From Antedon mediterranea (Eukaryota; Animalia; Echinodermata): a stretch of DNA of 64,000 nt. Location of the stretch: NCBI RefSeq assembly GCF_964355755.1, contig NC_092676.1, positions 4,131,888-4,195,887 of the forward strand, given 5' to 3'. Of the stretch, positions 23,414 through 63,486 are shown one piece after another. The notes beneath the pieces are model-generated. The model ran no database searches. It worked only from the letters and a program-made list of their open reading frames with translations, and had not been told where the DNA came from. Within the stretch, counting starts at the first letter, position 1; the number at the start of each line of letters is the position of its first letter. The translations under genes and the position numbers were made by a program.

Positions 23414-23561
23414 ATGTCAAACGTTGAGATGACTTTGGGAGATAAAGTTTACTACGCACATCACGGTACTGAATTGCGTAAGAAGATGTTTGTCTTTAAA
23501 GTGGTAATAATATTGGTGGAGTTATCGTTTTCTAGTTGTGCTGATGTTGGTTCAAATTCTG
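23414..23561 (+). CDS. Probable first coding exon with signal peptide ([25 protein letters not shown]; ATG at 23486 or 23414)
   Basis: Hydrophobic stretch ending in SCA; donor g|gtatga, phase 1, matches the SRCR1 acceptor. The link across the 17.7 kb intron is inferred. Confidence 0.55.
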
Positions 23562-44500: not shown

Positions 44501-47500
44501 CACCAGTCAGGGGTGGCGCCAGGATCTTCCCGACGCGGGGGCTACATTCCCCGACGAGGGGGCTATGCGAGCGAAGCGAGCATCACTAGGCTGGGGGACA
44601 GGGGGCCGCCAAGGGCCCCCGGTGGGGGTCCAGGGGGCGAAGCCTCCGGAAGCAACGCGTTCTAGCGTCATTTGAGGTCATTTTAATCAGATTTAGGGTA
44701 GCCATTTTTTTCCATTTTTTATAATGCATAAATAAAATACTAAAATACTGCGTGCAAAAAAACGATGCGCGATGACTGTTTCAATCTATATTTTTCAATT
44801 TAAAAAATAAAAGTTCAAAGAAAATTTAGAAAAATAGAGTTTTGGAGGTCCCGGAAATTGAACTTATTATACTTCAAAACATGAAACAAAATATATAAGT
44901 CCCTATAAAGGTTGTGACTGAGCTAAGAAATGTTGAAAAATAGAGATGTTAGGTCCCGGAAAATGCACTTCCTTGTACTTCGAAATATGACCAGCTTTAT
45001 TGTTGGGGCTGAGCTAAGAAACTGTTTAAAACTAGAGCTGCAGGTCTTCAAAAAATTGCATTTTATACTTCGGAAAAATCAGGCCTAGAGGCTTAAAAAA
45101 AGCAAGCGTAGACCTTTTTCAGTCGGGGAAATAAGTTTATTCCTCCCAAGTGTATGCGTGCGTACCATCTGGACTCCCGAGTGGTGAGAAATTCATGACA
45201 TACAGGACATTGAAAATGTAATAACTTAGCTATAATAAGATGTTGGCTAAGCGAAAATGGCATGTTTTTTTGTTTAGTAATGGATGAAAAATGTTTTTTA
45301 GGTGCCCCACGGTACAGAAGGTTACTTGTAAAAAATTGGTGAACATACGAACAATTAACATAATTCGTTTTTGCTGTAGTGTAGCGTACGTCGACGCAGT
45401 ACACGATGTAACCGTCAGTAAACTTCGCCTGGAAAATAACTACAGTACACATTTTGGTCCCTGGATGGAACATGATATCACGCGTCTCGACCCAACGTTG
45501 AACGATTCGTACAAAGGGATACCGCCAGACAAGTGCGAACCTAGCTATTGTTTAGTAGTAAGTTAGATCGCTGGCAATAATGAATGCATATAAAGTGCAT
45601 AATATCACTCTGACGTGCTCTCACGGTCAATGAAACGTCGCGGTTTTCTAGGCGCTGAAGCTAGCTACGAAGTGAACGCGAACGCTTTTTACTGTATATT
45701 ATATTCCCCGACAAAAAGTACCCGTGTTCCCTTCGGTAACCGTCGGTAAACTTCGCCTAGAAAATAACTACATTACACATTTTGGTCCCTGGATGGAACT
45801 TGATATCACGCGTCTCGACCCAACGTTGAACGATTCGTACTGAGGGATACCGCCAGACAAGTGCGTACCTAGCTAATGTTTAGTAGTAAGTTAGATCGCT
45901 GGCAATAAATGAATGCATAAAAGTGCATAATAGCCCTCTGACGTACTCTCACGGTCAATGGAACGTCGTGGTTTTCTAGGCGCTGAAGCTATATGAAGTG
46001 AACGCGAACGTTTTTTACTGTATATTATATTCCCCGACAAAAAGTACCCGTGTTCCCCGACGGGGGGGGGCTAGGCTCCCGACGAGGGGGTTAGAGCCCC
46101 CGTAGCCCCCCCGCTGGCGCCACCACTGCCACCAGTATTCATCATTATCGTAGTGTTCTACTATGTAAGATAGAAATAAAGTACTTGGTAATGCTGTTGT
46201 TTTACATGAATTACTGAATTGTATTATTTACTGCTTGTGTTTTTTTTTAACAAAATCATTGTAGTCAGATGCCCAACATATTGCACCTGTAATGTCCAGA
46301 CGTGTTACTTAGCAAGTTGTTATAATAACACTAGATGTACTCAATGGAATGCAAATATACATACAGAACTTGTTGACTACAATGTATATGATCCAATAAC
46401 AAGATTGTAAGTAGAACTAAGTTTATGTCATACTGTGAGCAAAATAAACAATTTATATTTCTTTGATAATATAGGTCCATGCTATTTATACAGCAGAATC
46501 ATGATAATATTGAACAGATGGGGAGTGGGTGGATTTTGTTAATGTGGAACTACTGGTCTTGTGGCGGTCTACAGTATATTTAGGTCGTTTCAATCAGTTT
46601 ACGGGCTCATCAGTAATCTGGTCATTTTCCGTATACGACATTTTACGTAAGAATGTGATAGTAGACTAAAAATAACATTTTTTATTTTAACATAGTATAT
46701 TGTGACATCACTAAAGTACATACAATAGAGTACATGCAGTATAACTACTGTATAATGTACAGGAAATGTAGAAATTTCAACATTTGAGGTGACAGAAAAA
46801 CTAAAATAATTTAAAAACAGCTTGGATATTGTGATTTACTTACACTGTGCATTCTTTGGGATTTGACCTATAACCAAATTAAGTACATGTTGGTTAAACA
46901 ATGATAATGGTTTAATATTATATTGATTTCACAATTTGTGATCTTATAAAAATAACTTTAAAAATCAAGTTTTTTGTTCATCCACCATGTAATGAACTTT
47001 ATTTTTTTTATATATAATAATTCAAAATCAATTTTTATTGTAAATATCACAATATAAATATAATTATATTTATATATATCATCATAACAAATGTTACTAA
47101 ATAATTAAAATTTGTTTATGTATTAATTTTGTCTTATGAGAAAAAATGTTTCAAAATATAAATATATATTTTATATTTTGACATTAAAATGTTTATGCAA
47201 TACAGTGAATGCATTGTAGGATCAATTGTAATATTGGACTAATATGCTATACATTATGACTATTTACAGTAAAAAGAATTTTAAAATAAACATTTTTTAA
47301 ATGTATCCACCATGATTGAACTATTTATTTTGGTAAGATCTAACAATTGAAACTAAATCTGTATTACATATAGATAATACATTTATTATATGGTTGCTAA
47401 CGAACAATTTGAAATTGGTGTAGAAATTTTGTTTTAATAAAATAAGTTATCAAAATAAATTTACCACATTTTTATTTTAACATAGTATATTTTGACATCA

Positions 47501-50500
47501 CTAAAGTACATACAATATAGTACATGCAATATAACTACTGTATAATGTAGCCTACAGGAATGTAGACATTTCAACATTTGAGGTGACAGAAAAACTAAAA
47601 TAATTTAAAAACAGCTTGGATATTGTGATTTACTTATACTGTGCATTCTTTTTACTTTTAAGGTCTTTGTACGATAACCAAATAAGTACATTGCAAGCCA
47701 ATGCATTTGCTGGTTTGACAGCATTGGAAACACTGTAAGTGTATTGCTTATGTTTGCTAACTTTTATCAGTTTGGTTTTAATCTAGAAATTAAATTACAA
47801 ATTATTTTGAATTGTTGATTAAGCAATTATAATGGATTAATATTATTACATAATTGCACAATTTGTGATCGTATAAAAAATATCTTTATAAATCACAAGT
47901 TTTTAGTTCATCCACCATGAATGAACTTTATTTTTGTGTAATACATAATAATTCTGAATTAATCTTAAATGTAAAATTTCACAATATAAATATCATTATA
48001 ATGATTGTTATACTAATTAATTAGTATTTGTTTATGTAGTGATTTTGTTTTATGATAATAAAAATTATTAAAATATAAATATATATTTTATATTTTGACA
48101 TCATTAAAATATTGATACAATACAGTGCATGTATTGTAGGATCAATTGTAATAATGGACTAATAATATTTACCTTATGATTTCATGATTATTCACAGTAA
48201 AACAAATTTAAAAAGCAACAATTTTGTAATTTATCCACCATGATTGAATTATTTATTTTTGTAATATATAACAATTGAAACTGAATTTACATTACATATT
48301 AGATAATACATTTATTATATGGTTGCTATCAAACAATTTGAATTTGTTGACATTTTGTTTTAAGAAAATATGTTATTCAAATAAATTTACCATATTTGTA
48401 TTTTAACATAGTATATTTTGACATCACTAAAGTACATACAATAGAGTACATGCAGTATAACTACTGTATAATGCACAGGAATGTAGACATTTCAACATTT
48501 GAGGTGACAAGAAAAACTAAAATAATTTAAAAACAGCTTCGATATTGTGATTTACTTATACTGTGCATTCTTTTTACTTTTAAGGGATTTGGGCAGTAAC
48601 CAAATAAGTACATTACAAGCCAATGCATTTGCTGGTTTGACAGCATTGGAAACACTGTAAGTGTATTGCTTATGTTTGCTTACAGTTACTAATTTGGTTT
48701 TATATTATAAATTAAATTATAAATTATTTTATATTGTTGGTTAAACAATGAAAATGGATTAATATTATTCTATAATTTCACAATTTGTGACCTTATAAAA
48801 AATATCTTTATAAATCACTAGTTTTTACTTCATCCACCATGAATGAACTTTATTTTTGTGTAATACATAATAATTTTAAAAATAATATTAATTGTAAAAT
48901 TTCACAATATAAATATCATTATAATGATTGTTATACTAAATAATTAGTATTTGTTTATGTAGTGATTTTGTTTTATGATAATACAAATTATTAAAATATA
49001 AATATATATTTTATATTTTGACATCATTAAAATGTTGATACAATACAATGCATGTATTGTAGGATCAATTGTAATAATGGACTAATAATATGTATCAACA
49101 TTTTTAAAATGTATCCACCATGATTGAACTATTTATTTTTGTAAGATATAACAAAACTGAATCTGTATTACATATTAGATAATACATTAATTATATGGTT
49201 GTTAACAAACAATTTGAATTTGTTGTAGACATTTTATTTTTAATAAAATAAGTTATTAAAATATATATACATTTTTACTTTAACATAGTATATTTTGACA
49301 TCACTAAAGTACATACAATATAGTACATGCAATATAACTACTGTATAATGTACAGGAATGTAGACATTTCAACATTTGAGGTGACAGAAAAACTAAAATA
49401 ATTTAAAAACAGCTTGGATATTGTGATTTACTTATAATGTGCATTCTTTTTACTTTTAAGGAATTTGTACAGTAACCAAATAAGTACATTACAAGCCAAT
49501 GCATTTGCTGGTTTGACAGCATTGAAAACACTGTAAGTGTATTGCTTATGTTTGCTTACTTTTACCAATTTGGTTTTAATTTAGAAATTAACAAACTTTA
49601 TTTTTTTGAATAATATTATAATAATTCAAAATACATTTTTATTGTAACTGTCACAATATAAATATTATTATAACAAATGTTACTAAATAATTAGTATTTG
49701 TTTATTTAGTGATTTTGTTTTATGAGAATAAAAATTATTGAAATATAAATATATATTTTATATTTTGACATTAAAATATTGATACAATACAGTGCATGTA
49801 TTGTAGGTTTGATTGTAATAAGGGAGTAATAATATGTACTTTATGATTTCATGATTATTTATAGTAAAAATAATTTTAAAGTGAACATTTTAAAAATGTA
49901 TTCACCATGATTGAACTATTTATTTTTGTAAGATATAACAATTGAACTGAATCTGTATTACATATAGATAATACATTTATTATGGTTGCTATCAAACAAT
50001 TTTTAATTTGTTGTAGACATTTTATTTTAATAAAATAAGTTATTAAAATATACATTTTTACTTTAACATAGTATATTTTGACATCACTAAAGTACATACA
50101 ATAGAGTACATGCAGTATAACTACTGTATAATGTACAGGAATGTAGACATTTCAACATTTGAGGTGACAGAAAAATTAAAATAATTTTAAAACAGCTTGG
50201 ATATTGTGATTTACTTATACTGTGCATTCTTTTTACTTTTAAGGGATTTGAGGGGTAACCAAATAAGTACATTACCAGCCAATGCATTTGCTGGTTTGAC
50301 AGCATTGAAAACACTGTAAGTGTATTGCTTATGTTTGCTAACTTTTAACAATTTGGTTTTAATTTCGAAATTAAATGAAAAATTATTTTACAAAGTTGGT
50401 TAAACAATGATAATGGATTAATATTATTATATAATTTCACAATTTGTGATCTTATAAAAAATAACTTAAAAAATCAGTAGTTTTTTGCTCATCCACCATG

Positions 50501-53500
50501 AACAAATTTTAATTTTTTAAATATTATATAATAATTCAAAATAAATTTTTATTGTAAATGTCACAATAAAAATATCATTATAACAAATAATACTAAAACT
50601 AAATAATTAGTATTTGTTTATGTAGTGATTTTGTTTTATGAGAATAACAATTATTAAAATAGGAATATATTTTATATTTTAACATTAAAATATTGATACA
50701 ATACAATGCATGCATTGTAGGATCAATTGTAATAATGGACTAATCATATGTACCTTATGATTTCATGATTATTTACAGTAAAAAGAATTTTAAAGTCAAC
50801 ATTATTTTTATTTGTAATTTATCCACCATGATTGAAGTATATATTTTTGTAAGATATAACAATTGAAAGTGAATCTGTATTTAATACATAATAGATAATA
50901 CATTTATTATATGGTTGCTATCAAACAATTACATTTGGTGAAGACATTTTATTTTAAGAAATTAAGTTATTAAATTATATTTACCACATTTTTATAAAAC
51001 TGACAAAATGTTTCTAAGTAGGCCTAATCAATATTTGTTTATGTACATTTTTGTTTATTTTAACAAAATAAGTTATTAAAATATACATTTGTATTTTAAC
51101 ATAGTATATTTTGACATAACTAAAGTACATACAATAGAGTACATGCAGTATAACTACCGGTACTGTATAATGTACAGGAATGTAGACATTTCAACATTTG
51201 AGGTGACAGAAAAACTAAAATAATTTAAAAACAGCTTGGATATTGTGATTTACTTATACTGTGCATTCTTTTTACTTTTAAGGAATTTGAGATGGAACCG
51301 AATAAGTACATTACAAGCCAATGCATTTGCTGGTTTGACAGCATTGGAAAAACTGTAAGTGTATTGCTTATGTTTGCTACTTTTACAATTTGGTTTTAAT
51401 CTAGAAATTAAATTACAAATTATTTTGAATTGTTGATTAAGCAATTATAATGGATTAATATTATTACATAATTTCACAATTTGTGATTGTATAAAAAAAT
51501 ATCTTTATAAATCACTAGTTTTTAGTTCATCCACCATGAATGAACTTTATTTTTGTGTACATAATAATTCTGAATTAATCTTAAATGTAAAATTTCACGA
51601 TGTAAATATCATTATAATGATTGTTATGCTAAATAATTATTATTTGTTTATGTAGTGATTTTGTTTTATGAGAATAAAAATTATTAAAATATAAATATAT
51701 ATTTTATATTTTGACATTAAAATGTTGATACAACACAATGCATCCATTGTAGGATCAATTGTAATAATGGAGTAATATGTACTTTATGATTTTCTATAAT
51801 TTCACAATTTGTGATCTTATAAAAAAACTTTAAAAATCAATAGTTTTTTGCTCGTCCAACATTAACAAACTTTATTTTTTTGAATAATATTATAATAATT
51901 CAAAATACATTTTTATTGTAACTGTCACAATATAAATATTATTATAACAAATGTTACTAAATAATTAGTATTTGTTTATTTAGTGATTTTGTTTTATGAT
52001 AATAAAAATTAATAAAATAAAAATATATATTTTGACATTAAATATTGATACAATACAGTGCATGTATTATAGGATCAATTGTAATAATGGACTAATAATA
52101 TGTACTTTATGATTTCATGATTATTTACAGTAAAACCAATTTTAAAATCAACATTTTTAAAATGTATCCACCATGATTGAACTATTTATTTTTGTAAGAT
52201 CTAACAATTGAAACTGAATCTGAATTACATATAGATAATACATTTATTATATGGTTGCTATCAAACAATTTGAATTTGTTGACATTTTGTTTTCAGAAAA
52301 TATGTTAATCAAATAAATTTACAACATTTTTATTTTAACATAGTATATTTTGACATAACTAAAGTACATACAATAGAGTACATGCAGTATAACTACTGTA
52401 TAATGTACAGGAATGTAGACATTTCAACATTTGAGGTGACAGAAAAACTAAAATAATTTTAAAACAGCTTGGATATATTGTGATTTACTTATATTTATTA
52501 CCAGCCAATGCATTTGCTGGTTTGACAGCATTGAAAACACTGTAAGTGTATTGCTTATGTTTGCTTACTTTTATCAATTTGGTTTTAATTTAGAAATTAA
52601 ATGAAAAATTATTTTACATTGTTGGTTAAACAATGATAATGGATTAATATTATTTATAAAATTTCACAATTTGTGATCTTGTAAAAACAAACTTAAAAAA
52701 TCAATAGTTTTTTGCTCATCCAACATGAATGAACTTTTTATAATATATAATATTTCAAAATGATTTTTTATTGTAAATGTCACAATATAAATATATTTTT
52801 GTAAATCAACAATTTCAGCCGTCGGGCTGCATGTTTTTTATTATATAAACCTGAATAAATAAATAAATAAATTATTACAATTGATCCTACAATACATGCA
52901 CTGTATTGTATAAACATTTTAATGTCAAAATATAAAATATGTAATCACTACATAACAAATACTAATTATTTAGTATAACAATCATTATAATGATATTTAT
53001 TGTGAAATTTTACAATTAATATTATTTTTAATTATTATGTATTACAGAAAAATAAATTTCATTCATGTTGGATGAATTAAAAACTAGTGATTTATAAATT
53101 TATTTTTTATAAGATCACAAATTGTAAAATTATGTAAATTATGTAATAATATTAATCCATTATCATTATACAGTTGTTGTACTGCATGTACTCTATTGTA
53201 TGTACTAGTGATGTCACAATATGATATGGGTAAATAAAAATGTATATTTTAATAACTTATTTTATCAAAATAAAATGTCTACAAAAAATTAAAATGTTTT
53301 GATAGCAACCATATAATAAATGTATTATCTATATGTAATACAGATTCGGTTTCAATTGCTATGTCATGGTGGATAAATTTAAAAATTGTTGATTTTAAAA
53401 TTAGTTTTACTGTAAATAATCATGAAATCATAAGGTACATATTATTAGTCCATTATTACAATTGATCCTACAATGCATTCACTGTATTGTATAAACATTT

Positions 53501-56500
53501 TAATGTCAAAATATAAAATATATATTTATATTTTAATAATTTTTATTCTCATAAAAAAAATCACTACATAAACAAAATACTAATTATTTAGTAACATTTG
53601 TTATAATGGTATATATATATATATGGAAACACAAATATTTAAAAAAATACCAAAATTTATACAAAATATAAAAAAATTTGAAAAATTCAGTTAAAAAAAT
53701 AAAATTATGTTAAAAAAATTACAAAATTTATATACAAATGCATAGGCCTATATATGTAAATATTTATAACATAGCCATCTTCAGCGTGATCAGTTTAGGT
53801 ACTGTTTAAATTAAGGATTCTACTTATAGTAAGGGCAGGCGAGGTCTTAAGACGGTTAGTTCTACAAACAGGTATATTAATTAGGGGTTTATGGACTAAT
53901 ATGTACTTTATGATTCCATGATAATTATTTACAGTAATTTTGTTTTAAGAAAATAAGAAATAAGTTATGAAAATATATTTACAAAAGTATATTTTGACAT
54001 ACTAAAGTATACAATAGATGGATTACATGCAGTATAGTGTATTTACTGTACTACAATTTAGTTTTAATTAAAAAGGTAAATTAGAAATTGTATTTTACAT
54101 TGTAGAACAATTATAACAAAATATTTAATATATAATTTCATTATTATGTGATTATAAGTTTAAACCCCACCTCACCAAAAAAAACCACAAACAACTGGTT
54201 TTTCGTATATGATAATATAGGCCTAATAAATCAAATATCAATTTTCAGTTGTTATTTTACAATATAAATATCATTTAAAATATCATTTAAGTTAATTTTA
54301 CTACATTTAGTATTTGTTTACTTTAACCAGAAAACAAACAAAAATAAAAGGGATAAATGCAGTGTTTATATTACCGTAAATCAATAGATAATTGGCAACT
54401 AACTTAATTAACTGCTAAAGCCCAAACTAGCAAGACCATAATGTGCATTATTTATCATATACTGTGTATTTTTTATCATTTAAGGTGGTTCATGAATGGT
54501 AACCAAATACACACATTGGAAGCCTATGCATTTGCCGGTTTGGAATCATTGACAGAACTGTGAGTATTTTTTCAATACTTGTACAAACTTCCTTATTTTT
54601 AAAAGAAACTTTATTTATTGTTGTTTTAGAACTATTCTAATTACTAGATGGTACGCTTGCTTCGCTCGCGTACCATCTAGGTCGTGCCCACAGATGGTTC
54701 TCGAATACATAATAATTTCAGCGTTAAAAAACTGGCGATTTCAAATGTACGTACCGCAGGACAATAATGTCGTTTACAGGAACGGATAAATAGACACTGT
54801 GATTTATGTACTAAACTAAAATTAGCACCCTGGGATTTACTTCCGAAAGAGAAACTTGTCACAAAATGAGACCAATTGTTTAAGTCAAATTTAAACAAAC
54901 TTAATTTGTGTTTTATATGTAACATTAGGGTTGAGGGATGGAAGAGGAACAATTTTTAAATATATTCTTTATCCATTTAGTAACGAAATATTAATTGTTT
55001 TCATGTTTTACAAATAATGTACCACTAAACCATGGAGGTATTTATACCCCCATGACTAAACACAAGTAAAACATTGCGATGTAATACTTTGTTGAAACTA
55101 TCACCGTCCTAGTCGATTGAAAAGTACAGTACGTATAACGATACATCACTACGACGTGTATATGTTTATATAATGTAAAACAATTTGTGAAAACCACCTC
55201 TATTCGGGGCAAATCATAAATTCGATTTAATCGTCAATAAATATTAAATTATCTAACTCAACTTAATTAGTAGGCCTAATGGTTTTCAATTGTTTCTTAG
55301 AGCTAATTCATACTTAAGTTGGTTCCTACCCTACCCACCAAAGTTGTTCTGCGTTTAGGGCATGTGATGCACTGTAGGCCTATCCTCTACTAAACATTCT
55401 AGAAATAACGCGCTATTTACCGAATTTTGCCCTTACGTAAATTTATATATAGATTCCAGTTGATACTGTATGTCATACTGCCCTAATATTGCTGTAACAC
55501 CGGTGCCAATCAATTTACATCTAACAACATGAATTATATTATTGTTTATATACATGAAAATTTTATTCAAAGATCTCTTTTGTCAATACATTTTTTATTA
55601 ATGAAAATTTACAATCATACAGTATCAAAACAACTTGGATGTATATGATTTTAATTACTATGAATCATTTTATTTTGAAGACGTTTGAATGGTCACAAAA
55701 TCAGTACATTGCCAGCTAATGCATTTAATGGTTTGACAGCATTGACAACACTGTAAGTGTTTTATTTAGTTCATAATACTTTTATAATTATTTTTTTTAA
55801 TTATACATTTTAAAATAAAATTTAATGAGAAAAAAGATAGATGCTGTTAATTTTACTCATTTGTTCTTTAGAATGGTTCCGAAACGTTGATCTTTTTTTG
55901 TCATTACATTTTATTTTAAAGTTATGTAGTAAACGTCTCTTAATTTGTAATTATGAATTCCTTTTTAAATTATAGTTAAATGTAAATCATGCAATTTTCT
56001 AAATGCAAATTTTAATGTAATGGTCCTATAGAGTAATTGTTTCACTTCATTTAATAATTAATATTTGATTAAAACTCCGAACAATGGGTCTTGATGTCCC
56101 CTTAAGGAGGTCCAGTAATATCATTTTCAGTATTTCTATCAAAATTATATTTACTGTCAAAAAGTATTTAGGTAACCGGTTACGGGATTATAAATACATG
56201 AAAAACCCCTTATTGTCAAAAATTGTCTGTGTGCCTATGGTACAGTAATATACGTTTATACAAATGTATTGATTTGCAATGAATGGAACATTCCAAATTA
56301 TTTGGTTTAACCATACTTGCATACCTCTATGGTTTAACACAAGTAGGTAAATTGATAGACCCTTGGAGAATAAACAGAAATAGTACTGTAATGCTATACA
56401 ATACTGCAAATAGGTATTAACCACTTTTGATCGCCATTTGAATCAAAAGTGTGTTGTACTGTTAGATATAATATAAACAAATATACTAATAAACTTTATC

Positions 56501-59500
56501 ACTTATTATAAACACATAATAATATAATACTTTATTACTGTCAGTTGTTTCTCAACGTTTGTATTAATTAATAATTACAAAAATATAAACGTATTAGTGG
56601 TCTTTAAATGTACTTTACTATTTCAATCGACCATGAGACAGTGACAGTTTATAAAGTATTAAATCGGAAATGTTTTACTCTAATTAGTGGTATATTATTT
56701 ATAGTATTAAGTAATGAAGGAAGAAAGTTTGTGGAAACAAACATATTGAATTTGAATTTAAATAATAGGTGTTTAAGACTATCTTCTGTTAGTTGAGGAA
56801 CATAGATTTAAGTATTTTTAAAAATTGTATTTATTTTGTTAATGCAAATTTTTAGAATTGTTAATTATACAAAAAAAATTGTTTTTTTTTCCTGTCCTCT
56901 TTTGGAAGTCTGTTTAATAAAAGGCCAAGTAATTAAATAGAAAAGACACACAAAGACTTTTGGGCGAGTGTCCGTTATGAGAGTTGTCCATTTACGAATG
57001 GTGTCCACACAGGGAGTTTTGGACCATTACTTAGGAAAGATAAAGCATCAAACTTTACAGTTTATTCTTTATTCTTTGTAGAAGGTTGGACGATAACCAA
57101 ATAAGGAAATTGCCAGCAAATGCATTTAATGGTTTGACAGCATTAAAAAAACTGTGAGTGTATCTCAAATTTATCCCAATTCATTAATTTACGTTTTAGA
57201 ATAATGACAGATTCATATTATTTAGTTTATCATTTCATAATGTGATCTTGTAACAAACAATTAATGAGAGGCAATGATCACCCAAGATCCATGAAATAAC
57301 ACCTTTGTACCAATAGGGTTACATGCTCTAGCATAATTTTAAAGGAAAAAAATTCACAAGAAAAGTTTAAGACTAATTAGCCGTGGATGGAAGAAGAAAT
57401 ATAATCAGAAAAATAAAGGGGTAAACACAGTGTTTATATACGGTAAGGTGTAGAAATCAATAGATAATTCACAACTAACTTAACTGCTCAAGCGTAAGCT
57501 AGCAAGACTATATACTATGCATTATTTATTATTTAAGGCGAATGAATGGTAACCAAATACACACATTGGAAGCCTATGCATTTTCTGGTTTGGAATCATT
57601 GACAGAACTGTGAGTATTTTTTCAATACTTCACTTTACCAACTTTCTAATTTCAAAAGAAATTGATTATTGTTTAGAACCATTATAATGTCAAATTATTC
57701 CAGTTAATACTGAATGTCATATAGACTGCCCTAACAAACATTGAGTAAACAGTGTCAGTCAATGGAATTACAATGAACAACATGAATTATATTGTGATCC
57801 TTTTGATTCCAAGATATTTTTTGTCACAAAAAAAGAAATAATGACATTTTACCATAATACTGTATCAAACAACTACTATATATATATATATATATGATGT
57901 ATATATTATATGATTTTCCTTAGTATGAATTATTTTATGTTGTAGTCAGTTAAGAAAATAATATCATAAAGTAGTTAAGTGTACTGTAGATTTGAATCCA
58001 ATTTGTTTGCTAAATATAAACGAAATATTTAACAAAGACACTAAGTTAGGGAAGGGCCGGACATATTGATAACCTTTGTAAAAATACAAAGAAAACAAAT
58101 AGGTGTTTTATATAAACTAAGATATTTGGTTTCTTTTAAAATAAATATTAATTTTAATATATAACTTCTTTATTTTACCGTTATTATTTATGGTATAGAA
58201 GTCTGGGGAAACACTCATATAATGTTACATTTTCTGATTTCATTTTATATAATTGTTTAAACAACTTAATATTATAGATGTTTAAAAGTTATGTTATATG
58301 TTTTGTGTTTTAATTATTATCATTTGTATTTATTATTTATATGCTATATTCATTTAATAACTATATCGGCGTCTATTAAAAAATTATTTATGTGTTACAT
58401 TTCGAAGGCCAAATCTCGCCAACCGAAAGCTTTTTATTTAGTCGTTTTGTCAAATAAGTAAATCATGTAATTATTATTATTTTACATTTTGTAAAAAAAG
58501 TCAAAAAGACTATGCATTATATTAAATAAAATAAACAGAAGGGCGTGAAAGATTACTGCAATTTTTGACTAAAAATCATGATCCTAATACATTAAAAGTT
58601 TTAATTTCTTTTGTGAGTTGTTGAAGCTTCCATAACATGAACAAGTGTTCGTTGCTATAGGTGTTTAGACAATCTCCTGTTAGTTGAGCAACATAGATTT
58701 AAGTAGTTTTAAAAACTGTATTCATTGTGATAATGCAAGTTTTTAGAAGTTAATAATACAACAAAAAATGTTTTTTTCCTGTCCTCTCTTGAAAGTCTGT
58801 TTCAATTATTAAATAATAAATTATTTTACATTGTTGGTTAAGCAATGACAATGGATTAATCACAATTTGTGGCTTATAAAAGATAATTTTTAAAAATCAC
58901 AGTTTTTAGTTCATCTATCATGAATGAACTTAATTTTTTTTTTAATTATTCCAAATCATTTATCCCCAAGTCAATTACAGTTTTCAACAACACCATTACT
59001 AGATACTTTGGTTCTGTTTAAGTAAATTGTTGTGTACTAGATGGTACGCTCGCTTCGCTCGCGTACCATCTAGGTCGTGCCCACAGATGGTTCTCGAATA
59101 CATAATAATTTCAGCATTAAAAAACTGGCGATTTCAAATGTACGTACCGCAGGACAAATACATGTCGTTTACAGGAACGAATAAATAGACAATTTGATTT
59201 ATGTACTCAACTAAAATTAGCACCCTGGGAATTACTTCCGAAAGAGAAACTTTTCACAAAATGAGACCAATTGTTTAAGTCAAATTTAAACAAACTTAAT
59301 TTGTGTTTTGTATGTAACATTAGGGTTGAGGGATGGGGAAGAGGATGGGTGCAAAGAGGAACAATTTTTAAATATATTCTTTATCTATTTAGTAACGAAA
59401 TATTAATTGTTTTCATGTTTTACAAATAATATACCACTAAACACAGTAAAACATTGCGATGTAATACTTTGTTGAAACTATCACCGTCCAAGTCGATTGA

Positions 59501-62500
59501 AATAGTACAGTACATGTAACGATACATCACTACGACGTGTATATGTTTATATAATGTAAAACAATTTGTGAAAACCACCTCTATTCGGGGAAAATCATAA
59601 ATTCGATTTAATCGTCAATAAATATTAAATTATCTAACTCAACTTAATAAGTAGGCCTAATGGTTTTCAATTGTTTCTTAGAGCCAATTCATACTTAAGT
59701 TGGTTCCTACCCTACCCACCAAAGTTGTTCTGCGTTTAGGGCATGTGATGTACCGTAGGCCTATCCTCTACTGGTTTTACAACGCTACTCATGCCAGTGA
59801 GAGAAGGGTGATGATGTGGGTGGTTTAATTGCAATAATAAAGATTTGTACATAATATACGGCGAGTGAAAACTCTAGCTCATTATCCGTTTAAAAAAAAA
59901 TGTATATCCAACCACTGCAGCACAGATTGAAAAAAAAAATGGATCGAATTTCTGTTATGAGTATACAGTACTTGCCTTTACGACGCCTGAGGGAATAGAC
60001 ACTTGAGGAACAGAGATTGGAATGTTCCATTCATCGCAAATCAATACATTTGTATAAACGTATATTAAATCTATCAAAATAATATTTTTTAAAGAAAATC
60101 GGCCTTTCTTCAACATTATGATGCTGTACTCGAGCTGTTCAACCGGTTTTCAGCTATTAAAAACAATTATCGTAGGAGGAAATAGGAAAATGCGAAGCAT
60201 CCTCGTATTATTGTGTGCGGGTATTTTTCAAGACGGAAATCCATTAGACAGTGTATACCACGATCGAAAAACACCCCTATTTGGGGCAAATCGTTGAACC
60301 TAAATTCGTTTTAATCGTCAATAACTAATTATCGAACTCAATTTAATTAGTAAACAGGGTTACATCAAGTGGTTAAAATCAGTACCGAAAGTACGAACCA
60401 ACTTTATATACCATCGAGTAAACATTCTAGAAATAACGCGCGATTTACCAAATTTTGCCCTTACGTAAATTTATATATAGATAACGTTTATGTGTAGTTT
60501 GTATAGCGTGTATAATGTTCTCATATATTTATTCATTTCTTAAAATAGTGTACAAAAAAAAACAGATTTCTGATTTGTTTTATTGAATCCAATTAATGCT
60601 GTGAGAGCAGCGAATTATTAATGTTATTATAAAGCAATATGTAGAGACAGCAGACTTTCTTCATCGGCATAATACTACTACTGTAGTTGGAAGCAGGAGT
60701 ACTTGTTACTCAGTATAACATTTTGATTTTCAATCATTCTGGAAGTATCCATTCATAATGTAATAATAATTTTACATTGCAGGTTAAACAACTATAACAA
60801 TAGATTTAATATTATTATATAATTTTATTATGTGATTTTATAACAAATTAGTTACAAAAAAAAAACCCAAAAACAACCGGTTTTTAATTAATTCATAATG
60901 AATTATTTTTATTTTTTTGTAAGATAGGCCTAATATAAATATAATTTAAGTGAGATTTTCTACATTTAGTATTTGCTTATGTAGTGATTTTGTTATCAAA
61001 TTATAAATATATTTTTTTAATATTAACAATTACTTTGTATTTCTCTTACTTTGAAGGATATTGCACATCGGGCAAGTCATTGGATATCGGTATTTTTTTT
61101 AAAAATTATTCTTATGAATTTCTTTTGATTAATAATTCATTAGTTCAATATATGTACTGCAAAAATGAATTCATATATGCCATGCAGTTGTTTGAAATGT
61201 TTAATTTTGATAACACATCTAAGTATAGCATTTAAATATTTCCATTCCGTTCAGGGTTAAGTGGTACTACTATCACTACAGTTTTCCTTAAAACAAATTA
61301 GTTTACGGCCATTGCGGCTCTTCTCCACGTTCAAACATTTGAGAGACATCTATTTATTTCCTTTGAGACTTATTATAGGCTAACATTGGCAGAATTGTAA
61401 ATTGTTATAGAAATTTGTCTTGCGACATCAACATAAAGTCTAAAAAAAGCACAAAAAAAATAAGTGTAATGACAAATATGCTTAATTTTGTATAAAATTT
61501 AAAGTAATTGAGTAAACAATTTTTTCTTTCCTTTTCACAACATAATTTAGGTGGCTCTGAGAACAAATTTGTAATTGTTTACTTATAATATTAAATATCA
61601 ATGAATAAATGAATGTGAACAAAACAAGGCTATCAAATTAAATTAATGAAATCACTTTTTCTAAACCTTAAACCTATTCTTAAAAAAACAAGGCCAACAT
61701 CCATTAAGTCGCGTGCTACAATGCATAGTGATACCGGACCGACCGACAGACCGACCGACCGGCATAGTGAACAATAGAGTCGCGTCCACGCGACTAAAAA
61801 GGCATAATTTTGACGAATTTTTGAACTTTTTCATCAAAAACGTGCGCAAATTATCCAATTCGACGTGCTCGTATGACGTAATTTTAAGTCAAAACTGTTT
61901 AAAAGTTGGTAAAATTATTAGAAAAGGCTGCAAAAACATAAATCCCGCGAAAAAAGTATGTATTTAACGCTACGTGCGCACCGCGCGCGTAAACATTTGC
62001 GCGCGTATGGGAATTTTTGACATGCTCAAAATGACAAGAAACGCGTAGAAAGTTGATTAAAAATTAATTTTGCGCATTTTAAAATTTTAAATGCGCGCGC
62101 GCGCGTAACTTTGTGTAAAACACACATTTTTTTTCAACAGAAAGTTAGCGCCTGATATGAATTAAACTTTTGCAAAGCTTCAATTTAAAATGTTATTTGG
62201 TTTTTGCCCTATGTTTAATACGAGAAAATCGTTAAATCGCGCGTAAATCACGTTGCGCAACTCTAACGTCATTCAAAATAGGATGTCCACAATTTCACGT
62301 AAATGCCCACATGTTGACAGTTCAAAAAGTACAGAAAAGCAATAAAACCCATAGTAATACCGGACCGACAGACCGACCGACATAGTGAACTATAGAGTCG
62401 CGTCTACGCGACTAATAAACTTGCCTAACATTATTCAAATTGCTTCTTATACTTCTACCTTTTTACTAATTCATTTCTTATACTAATGTATAATCTTGTT

Positions 62501-63486
62501 CCAATAAGCATGATTATTTTGTGTAATCTTCATAATGAAACTTCATTCAGTACCATTTTTTTGTAAAGACCTGTTTCATTTATTGAGTTGCAGGCTGCAT
62601 TGCAGCGGTGATAACTAATGGTTTTAATATATTGTAGTTGAAAACATATAATTTACATCAAAAATTAAATACTGCAATTTTTAGTCGCGTGGACGCGACT
62701 CCATAGTTCACTATGTCGGTCGGTCGGTCTGTCTGTCGGTCCGGTATCACTATGCGTTTTATCGCTTTCTGACCTTATCTTGATATCAGTTTAATCTAGC
62801 TAAGTCAATTTTTCACAGTATATTCCTTATGGCCAGGAATCGATGTGGTTATGTTTTCCCGGTGCGCAATAACAAATTACGCGGTCTACGCACGACGATT
62901 TAACGAAATCACGTTTGTAATCATATCTTCAAAACCATGAATCACAATTAAATAAAATTTGGTACTTGTAAATTACAGGGCATAAATCATCATATGGCAA
63001 TACAATTACATGCGTAGCGCATGTAACGCATGCGTACGCGCGCTTACAATTTTCAAAATTTATTTTCGATGAAATAAGAGTACGTTTCAGGCAATTTTAA
63101 GCGTTTACAAAATTGCCATGAGTGCGCAGATTTTTGCGCGTTAAATGTTATTGCGCACTCTATTTGCCCGATTTCTGTTTTCTTGACTTACTTTTCAACT
63201 CGAAATTATGTTATACGAGCACGTCAAAAGTGTCAGGCTACGCACGTGTAAATTAAAAAAATATAAATGTTTTTAAACATTTCAACATTTTTAAACATGT
63301 TCAGTAATTTCGGTCAGTTGGTAGGTTGGTCGGTCGGTAAACACTAATGAGCACGCGACTGCAGCCATCTATATGGCCTTGTTAATTCATACTGAACTTT
63401 TTCTTCAGGCCTGGCGTGTGGGACTCTAATCAAATACCTACAATAGAAGCCAATTCATTTAATGGTTTGACATCACTGCTACAACT
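23414..63486 (+). CDS. 5' portion of a spliced SRCR x3 - LRRNT - LRR x>=10 secreted or membrane receptor gene (putative pattern-recognition or LGR/GRL101-type receptor); continues beyond the window
   Basis: Phase-compatible exon chain: signal exon (phase 1), three SRCR exons (1-1), Cys-rich LRRNT exon (1-2), ten LRR exons (2-2), all with canonical AG/GT. Confidence 0.8.
24068..25512 (+). mobile_element. Non-autonomous Helitron, family A copy 1 (1445 bp)
   Basis: A|TCTATATATA 5' end; terminal hairpin ctagatggtacgc...gcgtaccatCTAG|T; no TSD; homologous to 54644-55453 and 59037-60481. Confidence 0.9.
25915..26696 (-). pseudogene. Apurinic endonuclease domain of the host LINE ORF2 (frameshifted near 26060)
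   Basis: Motifs [33 protein letters not shown]. Confidence 0.85.
26702..28860 (-). mobile_element. 5'-truncated LINE carrying a frameshifted reverse transcriptase, (TAA)n tail, 5-bp TSD cagta
   Basis: RT motifs [51 protein letters not shown] in ORFs 26890-28769; (att)n at 26701-26721; cagta at 26697-26701 and 28861-28865. Confidence 0.92.
29354..30331 (-). pseudogene. LINE ORF1 (coiled-coil / RRM-type), interrupted by a stop near 30034, with an N-terminal ~87-102-bp triplication
   Basis: ORF track 29354-30025 and 30034-30276; repeated ESPPVLEAA units. Confidence 0.8.
30436..31836 (+). mobile_element. Non-autonomous Helitron, family B
   Basis: A|TCTATATTATA start followed by a (gtct)(gttt)n microsatellite; 3' hairpin acccgccc-tg-gggcgggt, then CTAG|T. 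Confidence 0.85.
33970..34406 (-). mobile_element. Probable LINE 3'-end fragment inserted in the satellite (copy 1)
   Basis: Unique insert within a monomer; on the minus strand FKTYLKNAF*, then a UTR ending AATAAA plus (TA)n. Confidence 0.55.
36653..37089 (-). mobile_element. Duplicate of the 33970-34406 insert (copy 2)
   Basis: Same sequence at offset 2683. Confidence 0.55.
40356..40691 (-). mobile_element. 5'-truncated LINE with poly(A) tail and ~13-bp TSD (acatacgattgtt)
   Basis: ORF 40476-40682 has a LINE ORF2 C-terminus (IFG...LS..EN..LF..VQ.F...SGRF*); 3' stem-loop gaggcgcctt/aaggcgcctc; poly-T on +; TSD at 40343-40355 and 40692-40704. Confidence 0.88.
41245..41550 (+). CDS. SRCR domain exon 1 (6-Cys, group A-type)
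   Basis: [16 protein letters not shown]...[21 protein letters not shown]...[11 protein letters not shown]; gcag| and g|gtaaaa, phase 1-1. Confidence 0.95.
41698..42034 (+). mobile_element. tRNA-derived SINE with (TCAA)n tail
   Basis: Pol III A box tggccgagcgg and B box ggttcgaggc; (caat)n tail; absent from the paralogous intron at ~43180. Confidence 0.85.
42707..43012 (+). CDS. SRCR domain exon 2
   Basis: ORF 42694-43020; tttag| and g|gtaagt, phase 1-1. Confidence 0.95.
43859..44167 (+). CDS. SRCR domain exon 3
   Basis: ORF 43846-44181; tttag| and ag|gtagga, phase 1-1. Confidence 0.95.
44508..46128. mobile_element. Non-autonomous hAT DNA transposon with 8-bp TSD ccaccagt
   Basis: TIRs caggggtggcgccag / ctggcgccaccactg; TSD at 44500-44507 and 46129-46136; internal ~330-bp tandem duplication. 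Confidence 0.92.
46265..46406 (+). CDS. LRR N-terminal cap exon ([19 protein letters not shown]...DPITRL)
   Basis: CPxxCxC motif; ttgtag| and tt|gtaagt, phase 1-2, bridging the SRCR and LRR exons. Confidence 0.85.
46858..46888 (+). pseudogene. LRR pseudo-exon, 5' half only (DLTYNQ...)
   Basis: Follows the conserved upstream intron block, but the acceptor and the 3' half/donor are deleted. Confidence 0.7.
47663..47734 (+). CDS. LRR exon 1 ([24 protein letters not shown])
   Basis: 72 nt, ttttaag|...ct|gtaagt, phase 2-2. Confidence 0.92.
48585..48656 (+). CDS. LRR exon 2 ([24 protein letters not shown])
   Basis: 72 nt, phase 2-2, canonical splice sites. Confidence 0.92.
49461..49532 (+). CDS. 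LRR exon 3 ([24 protein letters not shown])
   Basis: 72 nt, phase 2-2, canonical splice sites. Confidence 0.92.
50244..50315 (+). CDS. LRR exon 4 ([24 protein letters not shown])
   Basis: 72 nt, phase 2-2, canonical splice sites. Confidence 0.92.
51283..51354 (+). CDS. LRR exon 5 ([24 protein letters not shown])
   Basis: 72 nt, phase 2-2, canonical splice sites. Confidence 0.92.
52497..52541 (+). pseudogene. LRR pseudo-exon, 3' half only ([15 protein letters not shown])
   Basis: Donor gtaagt intact; acceptor and variable 5' codons deleted. Confidence 0.8.
54485..54559 (+). CDS. LRR exon 6 ([25 protein letters not shown]; 75 nt)
   Basis: tttaag|...ct|gtgagt, phase 2-2, one codon longer than its paralog, exon 9. 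Confidence 0.8.
54644..55453 (-). mobile_element. Non-autonomous Helitron, family A copy 2 (internally deleted)
   Basis: Same TC/CTAG termini; inserted at A|T; empty site visible in the paralogous intron (aatta|ttccagtt at ~57693). Confidence 0.9.
55681..55752 (+). CDS. LRR exon 7 ([24 protein letters not shown])
   Basis: 72 nt, ttttgaag|...ct|gtaagt. Confidence 0.88.
57082..57153 (+). CDS. LRR exon 8 ([24 protein letters not shown])
   Basis: 72 nt, tttgtag|...ct|gtgagt. Confidence 0.9.
57538..57609 (+). CDS. LRR exon 9 ([24 protein letters not shown])
   Basis: 72 nt, tttaag|...ct|gtgagt. Confidence 0.9.
59037..60481 (-). mobile_element. Non-autonomous Helitron, family A copy 3 (1445 bp)
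   Basis: Full-length reverse-complement homolog of 24068-25512 with the same termini. Confidence 0.9.
61687..62416 (-). mobile_element. HINE/DINE-1-like (Helentron-associated) non-autonomous element with a duplicated terminus
   Basis: Terminal hairpin agtcgcgt.cacgcgact next to a (gacc/gaca)n microsatellite (twice); other end aacaaggcc. Confidence 0.65.
62678..63383 (+). mobile_element. HINE/DINE-1-like element, opposite orientation to 61687-62416
   Basis: ttttt-agtcgcgtggacgcgact hairpin, (gtcg)n, sub-terminal gcacgcgact, ends ggccttgtt. Confidence 0.65.
63409..63486 (+). CDS. LRR exon 10 ([26 protein letters not shown]; 78 nt)
   Basis: ttcttcag|...ct|gtgagt, phase 2-2, in frame but with an atypical 5' end. 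Confidence 0.75.

Follow-up and report, generated by a model that had tools for sequence, protein, structure and literature searches.

The locus of Antedon mediterranea described here raises the question of what kind of gene carries a row of near-identical single-LRR exons that differ chiefly in a few codons of one face of the repeat, and by what process those codons have come to differ. The window, by which we mean the whole 64-kb stretch of DNA that was analysed, holds 10 intact single-LRR exons of phase 2, along with two that are broken, within 46859-63486. The reading that we favour, with a probability of roughly 0.6, is that of germline exon birth-and-death combined with diversifying selection on the recognition surface of an LRR-GPCR, probably a sensor of non-self.

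The array almost certainly constitutes the LRR arm (ectodomain) of an Antedon GRL101-like LRR-GPCR. Nine of the 10 intact LRR exons occur letter for letter in the A. mediterranea RefSeq model P0150 (XP_071956189.1/XP_071956192.1), which matches Pfam LRR_8 (E=3e-72) and, at residues 406-674, Pfam 7tm_1 (E=4e-30), and in which an LGR-type Cys hinge (YSEYSSLCC...SCEDLL) is followed by a rhodopsin-family 7TM, both encoded beyond the window. In its predicted structure (pLDDT 84) each repeat contributes one beta-strand, seven long helices are present, and LGR4 is the best fold match; the best solved relative by sequence is the relaxin receptor RXFP1 (E=1e-88), followed by LGR4 (4e-59) and FSHR (6e-43), and relatives carry the RefSeq names GRL101-like or relaxin receptor. 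Judged by sequence, the hinge and 7TM are nearest to the relaxin-type (type C) LGRs, and the gene shares with RXFP1/2 (C1) and GRL101 (C2) an LRR arm followed by a short hinge rich in Cys and a 7TM of the rhodopsin family, and with the gonadotropin receptor genes the arrangement of one LRR per phase-2 exon. It differs from type C LGRs in having at least 15 LRRs, near-identical repeats and hypervariable x sites, and in that no LDLa is found in P0150, nor any match in the window to the LDLa-bearing P0164, the corresponding place upstream being taken by SRCR exons, which would have replaced the ancestral LDLa repeats.

All 12 LRR units sit inside this gene, with no further units elsewhere in the 64-kb window and no intact LRR exon on its opposite strand. 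The splice borders are AG...GT and of phase 2-2 in 10/10 intact LRR exons, whose length is 72 nt in eight and 75 or 78 nt in E7 and E11, so that any subset stays in frame, as the earlier note on this DNA had stated. The exons E1-E5, the x codons and the pseudo-copy D-L-T-Y that it named were all found; pseudo-exon B, the inverted intron copy, the three SRCR exons, the predicted signal-peptide exon and the extent (46265-46406) of the LRRNT-like exon had been overlooked.

Upstream of the array, a hydrophobic first exon (23486-23561), in frame with the downstream exons, is followed by three SRCR exons and a Cys-rich cap, and the resulting chain from predicted signal peptide through SRCR to LRR lies on one strand, with compatible phases and 0 stops over 633 codons. 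It is likely, if somewhat less secure than the assignment of the array itself, that the signal peptide, SRCRs and LRRNT-like cap are joined to the LRR-GPCR gene. RefSeq keeps SRCR-only models (P0081, P0012) apart from LRR-7TM models, and SRCR ahead of LRR-7TM occurs in none of the relatives listed; the sea anemone protein P0180, which combines SRCR, LRR and 7TM, was rejected as an instance of the same architecture, its SRCRs coming after the 7TM. Among the best 120 of 925 matches of the SRCR query, DMBT1-like proteins dominate, and an SRCR-LRR-7TM protein may stand among the others. The cap is called LRRNT-like because P0156 and P0161 have similar Cys-rich caps, and it has no Pfam match; a search against 1.84 billion representatives gave 7 matches, none with LRR, SRCR or 7TM (Pfam, E 1e-5), which were dismissed as chance, six having unrelated Pfam families and one none. 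An end of this exon at 46336 was discarded for its wrong phase and weak donor, and 46406 was adopted instead.

Table 1. Coding exons, broken exons and inverted intron material assigned to the receptor gene in the 64-kb window
Feature	Position	Strand	Remarks
First coding exon, predicted signal-peptide-like	23486..23561	+	phase 1 donor; matches N-terminus of paralogue model P0081 (XP_071956195.1) with two changes; join to SRCR presumed
SRCR exon 1	41245..41550	+	306 nt, phase 1-1; 95% to last SRCR of P0012
SRCR exon 2	42707..43012	+	306 nt, phase 1-1
SRCR exon 3	43859..44167	+	309 nt, phase 1-1; Pfam SRCR E=3.8e-33; 94% to P0012/P0081
Cys-rich LRRNT-like cap exon	46265..46406	+	142 nt, phase 1-2; open frame, GTAAGT donor
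Pseudo-exon A (D-L-T-Y-N)	46859..46888	+	acceptor deleted, 3' half gone
LRR exon E1 (S-L-Y-D-N)	47663..47734	+	absent from P0150, whose RefSeq model begins with E2
LRR exon E2 (D-L-G-S-N)	48585..48656	+	identical to P0150 residues 7-29
LRR exon E3 (N-L-Y-S-N)	49461..49532	+	matches P0150
LRR exon E4 (D-L-R-G-N)	50244..50315	+	matches P0150
LRR exon E5 (N-L-R-W-N)	51283..51354	+	identical in P0150 and P0147
Pseudo-exon B	~52495..52541	+	3' half of LRR exon; donor retained; acceptor and variable codons deleted
Inverted copies of repeated intron unit	52871..53623	-	~71-85% identity to array introns
LRR exon E7 (W-F-M-N-G-N)	54485..54559	+	75 nt
LRR exon E8 (R-L-N-G-H)	55681..55752	+	peptide common to P0150, P0147, P0122, P0123
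LRR exon E9 (R-L-D-D-N)	57082..57153	+	matches P0150
LRR exon E10 (R-M-N-G-N)	57538..57609	+	duplicate of E7
Mini-exon, 33 nt, phase 2-2	61057..61089	+	in RefSeq models; doubtful: weak donor, pLDDT <50
LRR exon E11 (atypical start P-G-V-W-D-S-N)	63409..63486	+	78 nt; further LRRs, hinge and 7TM beyond window

The variation among the young exons E1-E5 is concentrated to an unusual degree, in that the nine bases of the three x codons differ in 49/90 pairwise base comparisons (0.544), as against 22/630 outside the x codons and ~0.09 in the introns. Of the x-codon bases 8/9 segregate, as against 5/63 of the other exon bases (Fisher p=9e-7) and 8/190 columns of the 5' flank (p=4e-9). The enrichment over intron divergence goes beyond chance: none of 582 intron windows of equal shape attains the x-codon value (maximum 0.344), and neutral simulations attained it in 0/40000 runs at 10% divergence and 1/40000 at 20%. 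The pN is 0.61 in the x codons, 0.039 in the remainder of the exon and 0.085 in the introns, with pS at the x codons also raised, to 0.19, on the basis of ~1.5 sites only; a rigorous dN/dS is out of reach for five short, recombining exons. Projected on the motif LxxLxLxxNxL, amino-acid variation affects 6/6 concave x positions and 1/18 others (p=5e-5), in agreement with the diversifying selection proposed earlier for these positions, and the pairwise amino-acid difference of E1-E5 is 0.65 at the six concave positions and 0.02 elsewhere. The pattern recurs in P0234, which belongs to another Antedon subfamily, one whose representative is 64% identical in the 7TM: its 11 modules, built on a different scaffold, show a pairwise amino-acid difference of 0.66 at these six positions, against 0.06 for the rest.

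In the alignment, E1-E5 otherwise differ only by TTG/TTA, Q/P, Q/R, E/K and T/K, as had been said, and while the Q/R change is real, its position, previously placed outside the variable codons, is itself a concave x position. The replacement of whole codons at the x sites describes part of the pattern: on average 4.9 of 9 bases differ between E1-E5, and some changes, namely GAT/AAT, AGT/GGT and AGG/AGA, are single-base steps. Transitions account for 4/12 minor alleles at the x codons, i.e. there is no transition excess of the kind expected of deaminase-type hypermutation among these 12 alleles.

The near-identity that had been ascribed to the flanking introns is confined to the ~170 nt next to the acceptor, where divergence is 1-3%; the introns as a whole diverge by 6-11.5% with many indels and by ~9% in their middle. 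Turnover of units has left its traces in the two pseudo-exons, one inversion and intron remnants that lack an exon. Exchange between modules, as previously suggested, is evident from mosaic units: the 24 informative sites divide the five units in 8 different ways, and sites of the same split stand in runs (11 adjacent pairs, permutation p=1e-4), although adjacent-site compatibility overall is not significant (p=0.07). Four of five minor scaffold alleles of the young exons are present in the older modules E7-E11, by a test that disregards recurrence of tolerated changes; the alleles of the variable codons are not enriched among the older modules (7/12, p=0.54), so that no donor template for them was found.

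In the model that we propose, whole intron-plus-exon units would be gained, lost and patch-copied via unequal crossing-over and gene conversion, and selection would favour novel amino acids at the surface predicted to bind, in what is probably a sensor of non-self (microbe or parasite), the ligand presumably binding to the concave sheet and signalling to the G protein through the conserved hinge and 7TM. That the diversification is driven by selection and takes place in the germline is probable. The Antedon protein is likely a fast-diversifying recognition receptor, and possibly one for microbes.

A different model retains the gene and the selection, and ascribes the diversity mainly to splicing, whereby LRR exons would be skipped or chosen, in up to 2^10 in-frame subsets within the window, in the manner of Dscam; the conserved 5' flank, and base-pairing between the inverted intron copy and any upstream intron, might guide the choice. 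The uniform phase and consensus splice sites of all 10 exons would permit this, and in a relative from Anneissia japonica the annotated RefSeq isoforms X1 and X2 (XP_033096707.1, XP_033096713.1) differ by exactly one 24-aa LRR; the LRR exons of brown algal ROCO genes are reported to be alternatively spliced (PMC11378527). It has to be noted, however, that one-LRR phase-2 exons are an old LGR gene layout, described also for the rat LH receptor (PMC11378527), and, phase-2 symmetry being ancestral in LGRs, frame compatibility alone is no evidence for a cassette system; furthermore, the Antedon models examined carry no isoform labels. The low divergence of the flank relative to mid-intron, and a homologous flank in the intron read-through of P0160 (7TM 61% identical), are compatible with a function in splicing, yet the flank is without clear local structure, and a structured RNA element within it found no support (z=-1.83; 12/200 shuffles equally good). 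The inverted copy is able to pair with all six introns in computed duplexes (-413 to -509 kcal/mol vs -95 to -121 for shuffles); any inverted repeat gives strong pairing, however, and a copy that is 80-85% identical and indel-ridden is as expected of passive inversion. Splicing as the main source of diversity is on the whole unlikely.

Equally unlikely, with the genomic mechanism unchanged, is a family tuned not to microbes but to protein cues from outside or from conspecifics (in chemosensation, or in gamete or self/non-self recognition). Consistent with that idea, and counter to an immune role, published expression of GRL101-like genes suggests sensory tissue and not immune cells, their transcripts being enriched in the sensory tentacles of starfish (PMC6267866) and the tentacles of triton (PMC13403566), and rhodopsin-type GPCRs are described as an expanded sensory family in sea urchins (PMC3308324). 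The genes in these tentacle reports are either of LDLa type or GRL101-like without further specification, hypervariable LRRs forming no part of the descriptions given, and neighbouring repeats that are driven apart, together with added SRCRs, would better suit a changing antagonist than a fixed cue. SRCR genes are reported to be expressed by coelomocytes (PMC3308324). Judged by analogy, the chances that the ligand is immune, rather than sensory or reproductive, are about even.

More doubtful still is an anticipatory system derived from a relaxin-type GPCR, in which each feather-star cell would assemble its own LRR arm from the exon cassettes, by regulated exon choice (the inverted intron copy acting as a competing site for pairing) or by somatic conversion, and signal through an invariant 7TM; if true, an invertebrate deuterostome would possess a VLR- or Dscam-like repertoire that signals via a G protein. 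There is little room, too, for a neutral origin of the array by tandem duplication, whether the hormone-receptor gene be decaying or conventional, with the variable patch as a hotspot, a result of relaxed constraint or an assembly artefact. The broken exons, the atypical E8 and E11 and the many truncated paralogue models would fit such decay, and GRL101 has been proposed as an insulin-like-peptide receptor (bioRxiv 2021.04.15.440029). The x codons are, however, ~6x more divergent than the introns and relaxed constraint cannot surpass the neutral rate, so it is inadequate as an explanation; the L (TTG) and N (AAC) codons within the variable patch are invariant in 5/5 exons E1-E5, the same positions vary in the independent subfamily of P0234, the window is without any N, and the joined frame has 0 stops.

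The label "VLR-like" of the earlier note is not supported as a mechanism or a family, the array forming the extracellular arm of an LRR-GPCR whose gene is complete and spliceable, and a true VLR analogue, in which single immune cells would use the LRR exons as templates when converting or rearranging the gene somatically, is the least credible reading: the 24-residue LRRs, variable concave strand positions, LRRNT-like cap and signs of inter-module conversion are shared with lamprey and hagfish VLRs (PMC12264053), and pseudo-exons could serve as donors, but VLR germline genes are described as incomplete and filled somatically from donor cassettes, 129 and 144 of them in two lamprey clusters (PMC12264053), whereas the Antedon gene is complete in the germline, in frame and free of stops in its exon chain, with ~12 units in the window that all lie inside the gene, 10 of them with intact splice sites, the cassettes being ordinary exons between cap and hinge. 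VLRs have an LRRCT, a stalk and a GPI or single TM anchor, in contrast to the hinge and seven-helix domain of the Antedon gene, and the substitution spectrum at the x codons gives no hint of somatic assembly or deaminase action.

For germline birth-and-death under selection, the closest working analogue is found in the brown algal ROCO LRR-GTPases (PMC3341825, PMC11378527), reported to have phase-2 exons of 72 nt with a single LRR each, introns that contain inactivated and inverted material, paralogues that differ only in the LRR region, diversifying selection and a candidate immune role; the ROCO proteins are cytoplasmic GTPases of algae, unlike the cell-surface GPCR of an animal described here, whose inversion contains intron DNA only. 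The 90-bp-exon LRR genes of Tetrahymena (PMC6564038) are likewise described as clonal exon-plus-intron units with phase 2 introns and unequal crossing-over, but with 90-nt exons, thousands of genes and a retrotransposon adjoining the repeat units. The sea urchin TLR expansion (PMC3367398) is comparable as a multigene family of echinoderms in which selection likewise acts on the concave strands of the LRRs and the signalling domain is conserved, and differs in that the TLR genes are portrayed as simple, mostly intronless and TIR-bearing, without per-repeat exon turnover. Group 3 of the octopus adhesion GPCRs, with LRRs in 5/22 sequences, is adhesion-class, the Antedon receptor being rhodopsin-class, and the account given of that group mentions no cassette variation (PMC6408891); amphioxus FrLRR (PMC10199209), by its description a different protein, was rejected as a counterpart. 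We found no report in the literature of comparable LRR exon arrays in echinoderm LGRs.

The family is young and multi-copy, unlike the single GRL101 per ambulacrarian species that has been reported (bioRxiv 2021.04.15.440029). Nine A. mediterranea models, 92.6-100% identical over hinge and 7TM, lie on three chromosome-sized sequences and fall in a 16-model Antedon clade (support 100/100), whose nearest outgroups include the LDLa-bearing P0164 and P0165; the gene itself falls in a clade of crinoids only. The tree comprises 37 rows chosen from 82 matches plus cluster members, matches of unnamed source being excluded, with no reference GRL101 among them, and its outgroups carry long-branch warnings, so no deep orthology is claimed. 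Paralogues whose 7TMs are 93-100% identical bear other cassettes: by the protein models, P0147 equals P0150 from E5 to the C-terminus and carries another cassette (Y-L-N-T-N) upstream, and the 3' modules common to paralogues are unchanged (E8 in four models). This family structure is drawn from RefSeq protein models only, many of them truncated and some visibly unreliable, with intron read-through in P0123, P0160 and P0012, and the cassette differences between paralogues could in part be annotation gaps.

LGRs are familiar as hormone receptors of low copy number whose ligands are conserved. In the present case one lineage of them seems to have become a family of variable recognition receptors, with selection falling, separately in two or more Antedon subfamilies, on exactly the LRR sites that vary in lamprey VLRs and sea urchin TLRs. 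For crinoids, an echinoderm class that has received little study, the locus provides a named, testable candidate for non-self or pathogen sensing via a GPCR of the rhodopsin class. It further offers an animal example of exon-level LRR turnover, most earlier descriptions of which come from brown algae and ciliates, and may represent the kind of germline state that could plausibly give rise to a VLR-like cassette system. The splitting and truncation of these genes in RefSeq may explain why the pattern was overlooked. As a separate observation, the first intron of the gene contains an RT remnant, far from the LRR array.

The LRR array in this window likely belongs to a family of GRL101-like G-protein-coupled receptors (GPCRs) that has been diversified in the fashion of immune receptors, through germline turnover of exons combined with selection. 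A search for units of the form AG-exon-GT that can be read as an LRR recovered nine LRR exons on the + strand of the window and none on the - strand, to which blast added E8 and two fragments. Eight of the ten intact exons (E1-E5, a young near-identical set, and E7-E11) measure 72 nt, one 75 nt and one 78 nt, and all have donors GTAAGT or GTGAGT. Joining 16 exons through their splice sites gives a predicted frame of 633 codons with no stops, and the continuous chain from the first exon through three SRCR exons and the cap to the LRR exons is predicted to be one gene. Two Antedon mediterranea models match one of the SRCR exons at 94% identity, and an LRR profile search matched A. mediterranea GRL101-like GPCRs. 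One of the RefSeq models, P0150 (XP_071956189.1, XP_071956192.1), matches nine of the ten exons exactly, also at the variable codons; beyond them it has a further five repeats, then a hinge (YSEYSSLCC...SCEDLL), then a 7tm_1 domain. At the level of sequence, this identifies the gene as a type C-like LGR whose 5' two-thirds lie in the window. The closest solved structure is RXFP1 by sequence (E=1e-88) and LGR4 by fold. Canonical GRL101 is described as having many LDLa repeats (PMC4079206; bioRxiv 2021.04.15.440029), whereas none was found in the window or in P0150 by comparison with the LDLa-bearing crinoid receptor P0164 and a Pfam search of P0150.

The hypervariability proposed in the earlier note for the x codons of the L-x-L-x-x-N patch is borne out. 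Among E1-E5, the three x codons (nine bases) differ in 49 of 90 pairwise comparisons (0.544), as against 22 of 630 for the other 63 exon bases (0.035), with divergence of 0.02-0.03 in the 5' flank and 0.06-0.115 across whole introns. Of 582 identically shaped intron windows, not one reached 0.544 (mean 0.085, maximum 0.344), nor did any of 40000 neutral simulations at 10% divergence, and only one of 40000 did so at 20%. The x codons have a pN of 0.61 and the remainder of the exon one of 0.039; pS at the x codons (0.19) comes from about 1.5 sites, which makes the within-codon ratio weak, so that the excess over introns, and not dN/dS, carries the argument. In the standard LxxLxLxxNxL numbering, amino acids vary at all six x positions and at 1 of the 18 others (p=5e-5), and the L and N codons within the patch are unchanged across E1-E5. 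In an AlphaFold model (pLDDT 84), each repeat's strand takes in the residues as far as the first x and then passes into the L-x-x-N turn. The corresponding strand positions are established as ligand-facing in VLRs (PMC12264053), and the x positions here may face a ligand likewise.

Each repeat unit combines an intron with an exon and is 0.8-1.1 kb long. Units are mosaics in which 24 informative sites support eight different pairings, clustered in runs (p=1e-4), with overall adjacent-site compatibility not significant (p=0.07). Four of five minor scaffold alleles of E1-E5 are also present in E7-E11, under a null that ignores recurrent tolerated changes, and E7 and E10 with their flanks form a block duplicate. 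Together with the exon-less remnants and an inversion, these features are likely the trace of unequal crossing-over and conversion. The least diverged parts are the scaffold and the 170 nt ahead of each acceptor, the most diverged the x codons. This could reflect homogenising exchange with selection against losing binding-face differences, or rapid fixation of new binding-face residues; both would require selection. A dispersed 1.45-kb element, present in the first intron and in LRR introns, could promote rearrangement.

A tree was built from the hinge-7TM part of 37 selected proteins. It groups nine A. mediterranea models in one clade (100/98); their identity to P0150 is 92.6-100% across about 330 aa, and they are spread over three chromosome-sized sequences. 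This clade is nested within 16 Antedon models (100/100), the sister of which is three Anneissia models, with the LDLa-bearing crinoid receptors P0164 and P0165 outside. The whole picture of the family, including the comparisons that follow, comes from automated RefSeq models, and intron read-through occurs in several of them. The related P0147 equals P0150 from E5 to the C-terminal end and differs in the preceding cassette. P0234 (XP_071956026.1), a model from another subfamily whose 7TM shows about 64% identity, carries 11 distinct near-identical LRR modules on a different scaffold, differing by 0.66 at the six x positions and 0.06 elsewhere, the pattern of E1-E5; judged by sequence, it is an independent case of variation at the same concave positions. 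In P0160 (XP_071963861.1), with a 7TM only 61% identical, residues 38-56 come from read-through of intron DNA that shares homology with the E1-E5 5' flank, and the LRRs are a duplicated triplet. The SRCR-only models P0081 (XP_071956195.1) and P0012, with six and seven SRCR-like segments, lie on the same sequence as the LRR-7TM models, with accession numbers interleaved between theirs, and are probably 5' halves of paralogues split by annotation, in which case SRCR number would vary as well. With six or seven SRCRs in paralogue models, the SRCR region may be variable too in number and sequence. Pairs of the window's SRCR exons differ by 11-16 non-synonymous and 2-4 synonymous codons, a ratio about neutral or above.

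As to function, the ligand would bind the concave LRR sheet, perhaps assisted by the SRCR domains; signalling to a G protein would go through the hinge and 7TM, both of them conserved. Sensing of non-self is the favoured role, since adjacent repeats are being pushed apart and the signalling part is kept constant, as described for sea urchin TLRs (PMC3367398), and since coelomocytes express SRCR genes (PMC3308324). A sensory role is the alternative, consistent with GRL101-like transcripts in sensory tentacles (PMC6267866, PMC13403566).

It is unlikely that individual cells diversify the LRR arm by exon choice in splicing or by somatic conversion. Every exon subset does stay in frame, as the earlier note held (ten of ten intact exons are phase 2-2), but gonadotropin receptor genes share the phase-2 single-LRR exon layout (PMC11378527). 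Anneissia japonica isoforms X1 and X2 (XP_033096707.1, XP_033096713.1) differ by exactly one 24-residue LRR; isoform labels are, however, absent from the Antedon models examined. The 5' flank of the LRR exons is conserved, but no local RNA structure was found in it, and although every one of the six array introns can pair with the inverted intron copy, strong pairing is a property of any inversion. Somatic assembly of the VLR type is not supported, three of the VLR features tested for being absent and nothing positive pointing to it.

Some sea urchin gene names combine SRCR, LRR and GPCR; if these are right, the domain layout is already known and only the cassette hypervariability is new. No report of an LGR family with hypervariable LRR exons, whether in crinoids or elsewhere among echinoderms, was found in a search thin on subscription journals, and a single GRL101 per ambulacrarian species has been described (bioRxiv 2021.04.15.440029). 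Comparable arrays are described in brown algal ROCO genes, whose 72-nt LRR exons show shuffling, inactivated copies and diversifying selection (PMC3341825, PMC11378527), and in Tetrahymena, with 90-bp phase-2 LRR exons (PMC6564038).

Among the other elements, the inverted repeat pair is probably a DNA transposon, and the GC-rich insertion looks, from its sequence, like a non-autonomous one.

Features of the window, in window positions
Feature	Position	Strand	Remark
Exons of gene upstream	320-601, 1976-2068, 5135-5298, 7675-7790	+	peptides presumably recall PICALM/AP180 C-terminus
Minisatellites, 45, 90, 30, 17 bp	2928-3473, 5618-6787, 11555-11837, 16179-16740 respectively		
Inverted repeat pair, 524 nt	19949-20571, 22087-22769		90% complementary, 1.8 kb apart; immediately 5' of first exon
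Hydrophobic first exon, predicted	23486-23561	+	upstream of SRCR exons
Dispersed 1.45-kb element	24067-25513; 59036-60482, 54642-55454		89-94% identical; first intron (inverted); LRR introns
Broken LINE-like element	26003-30085	-	RVT_1 at 27743-28258 (E=1.2e-8); upstream frames resemble ORF1 and an endonuclease
83-bp satellite, roughly 90 copies	32700-40950		inside predicted first intron
SRCR exons (three)	41245-44167	+	third: Pfam SRCR E=3.8e-33
GC-rich insertion	44505-46135		inverted ends, internal direct repeat of ~320 bp; between SRCR3 and cap exon
Cys-rich cap exon	46265-46406	+	5' of LRR exons
Pseudo-exon A (D-L-T-Y-N)	46859-46888	+	acceptor and 3' half gone
Pseudo-exon B	~52495-52541	+	acceptor and variable codons gone
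Exon-less remnants and inversion of intron unit	52871-54320; 58808-58961; 60757-61042
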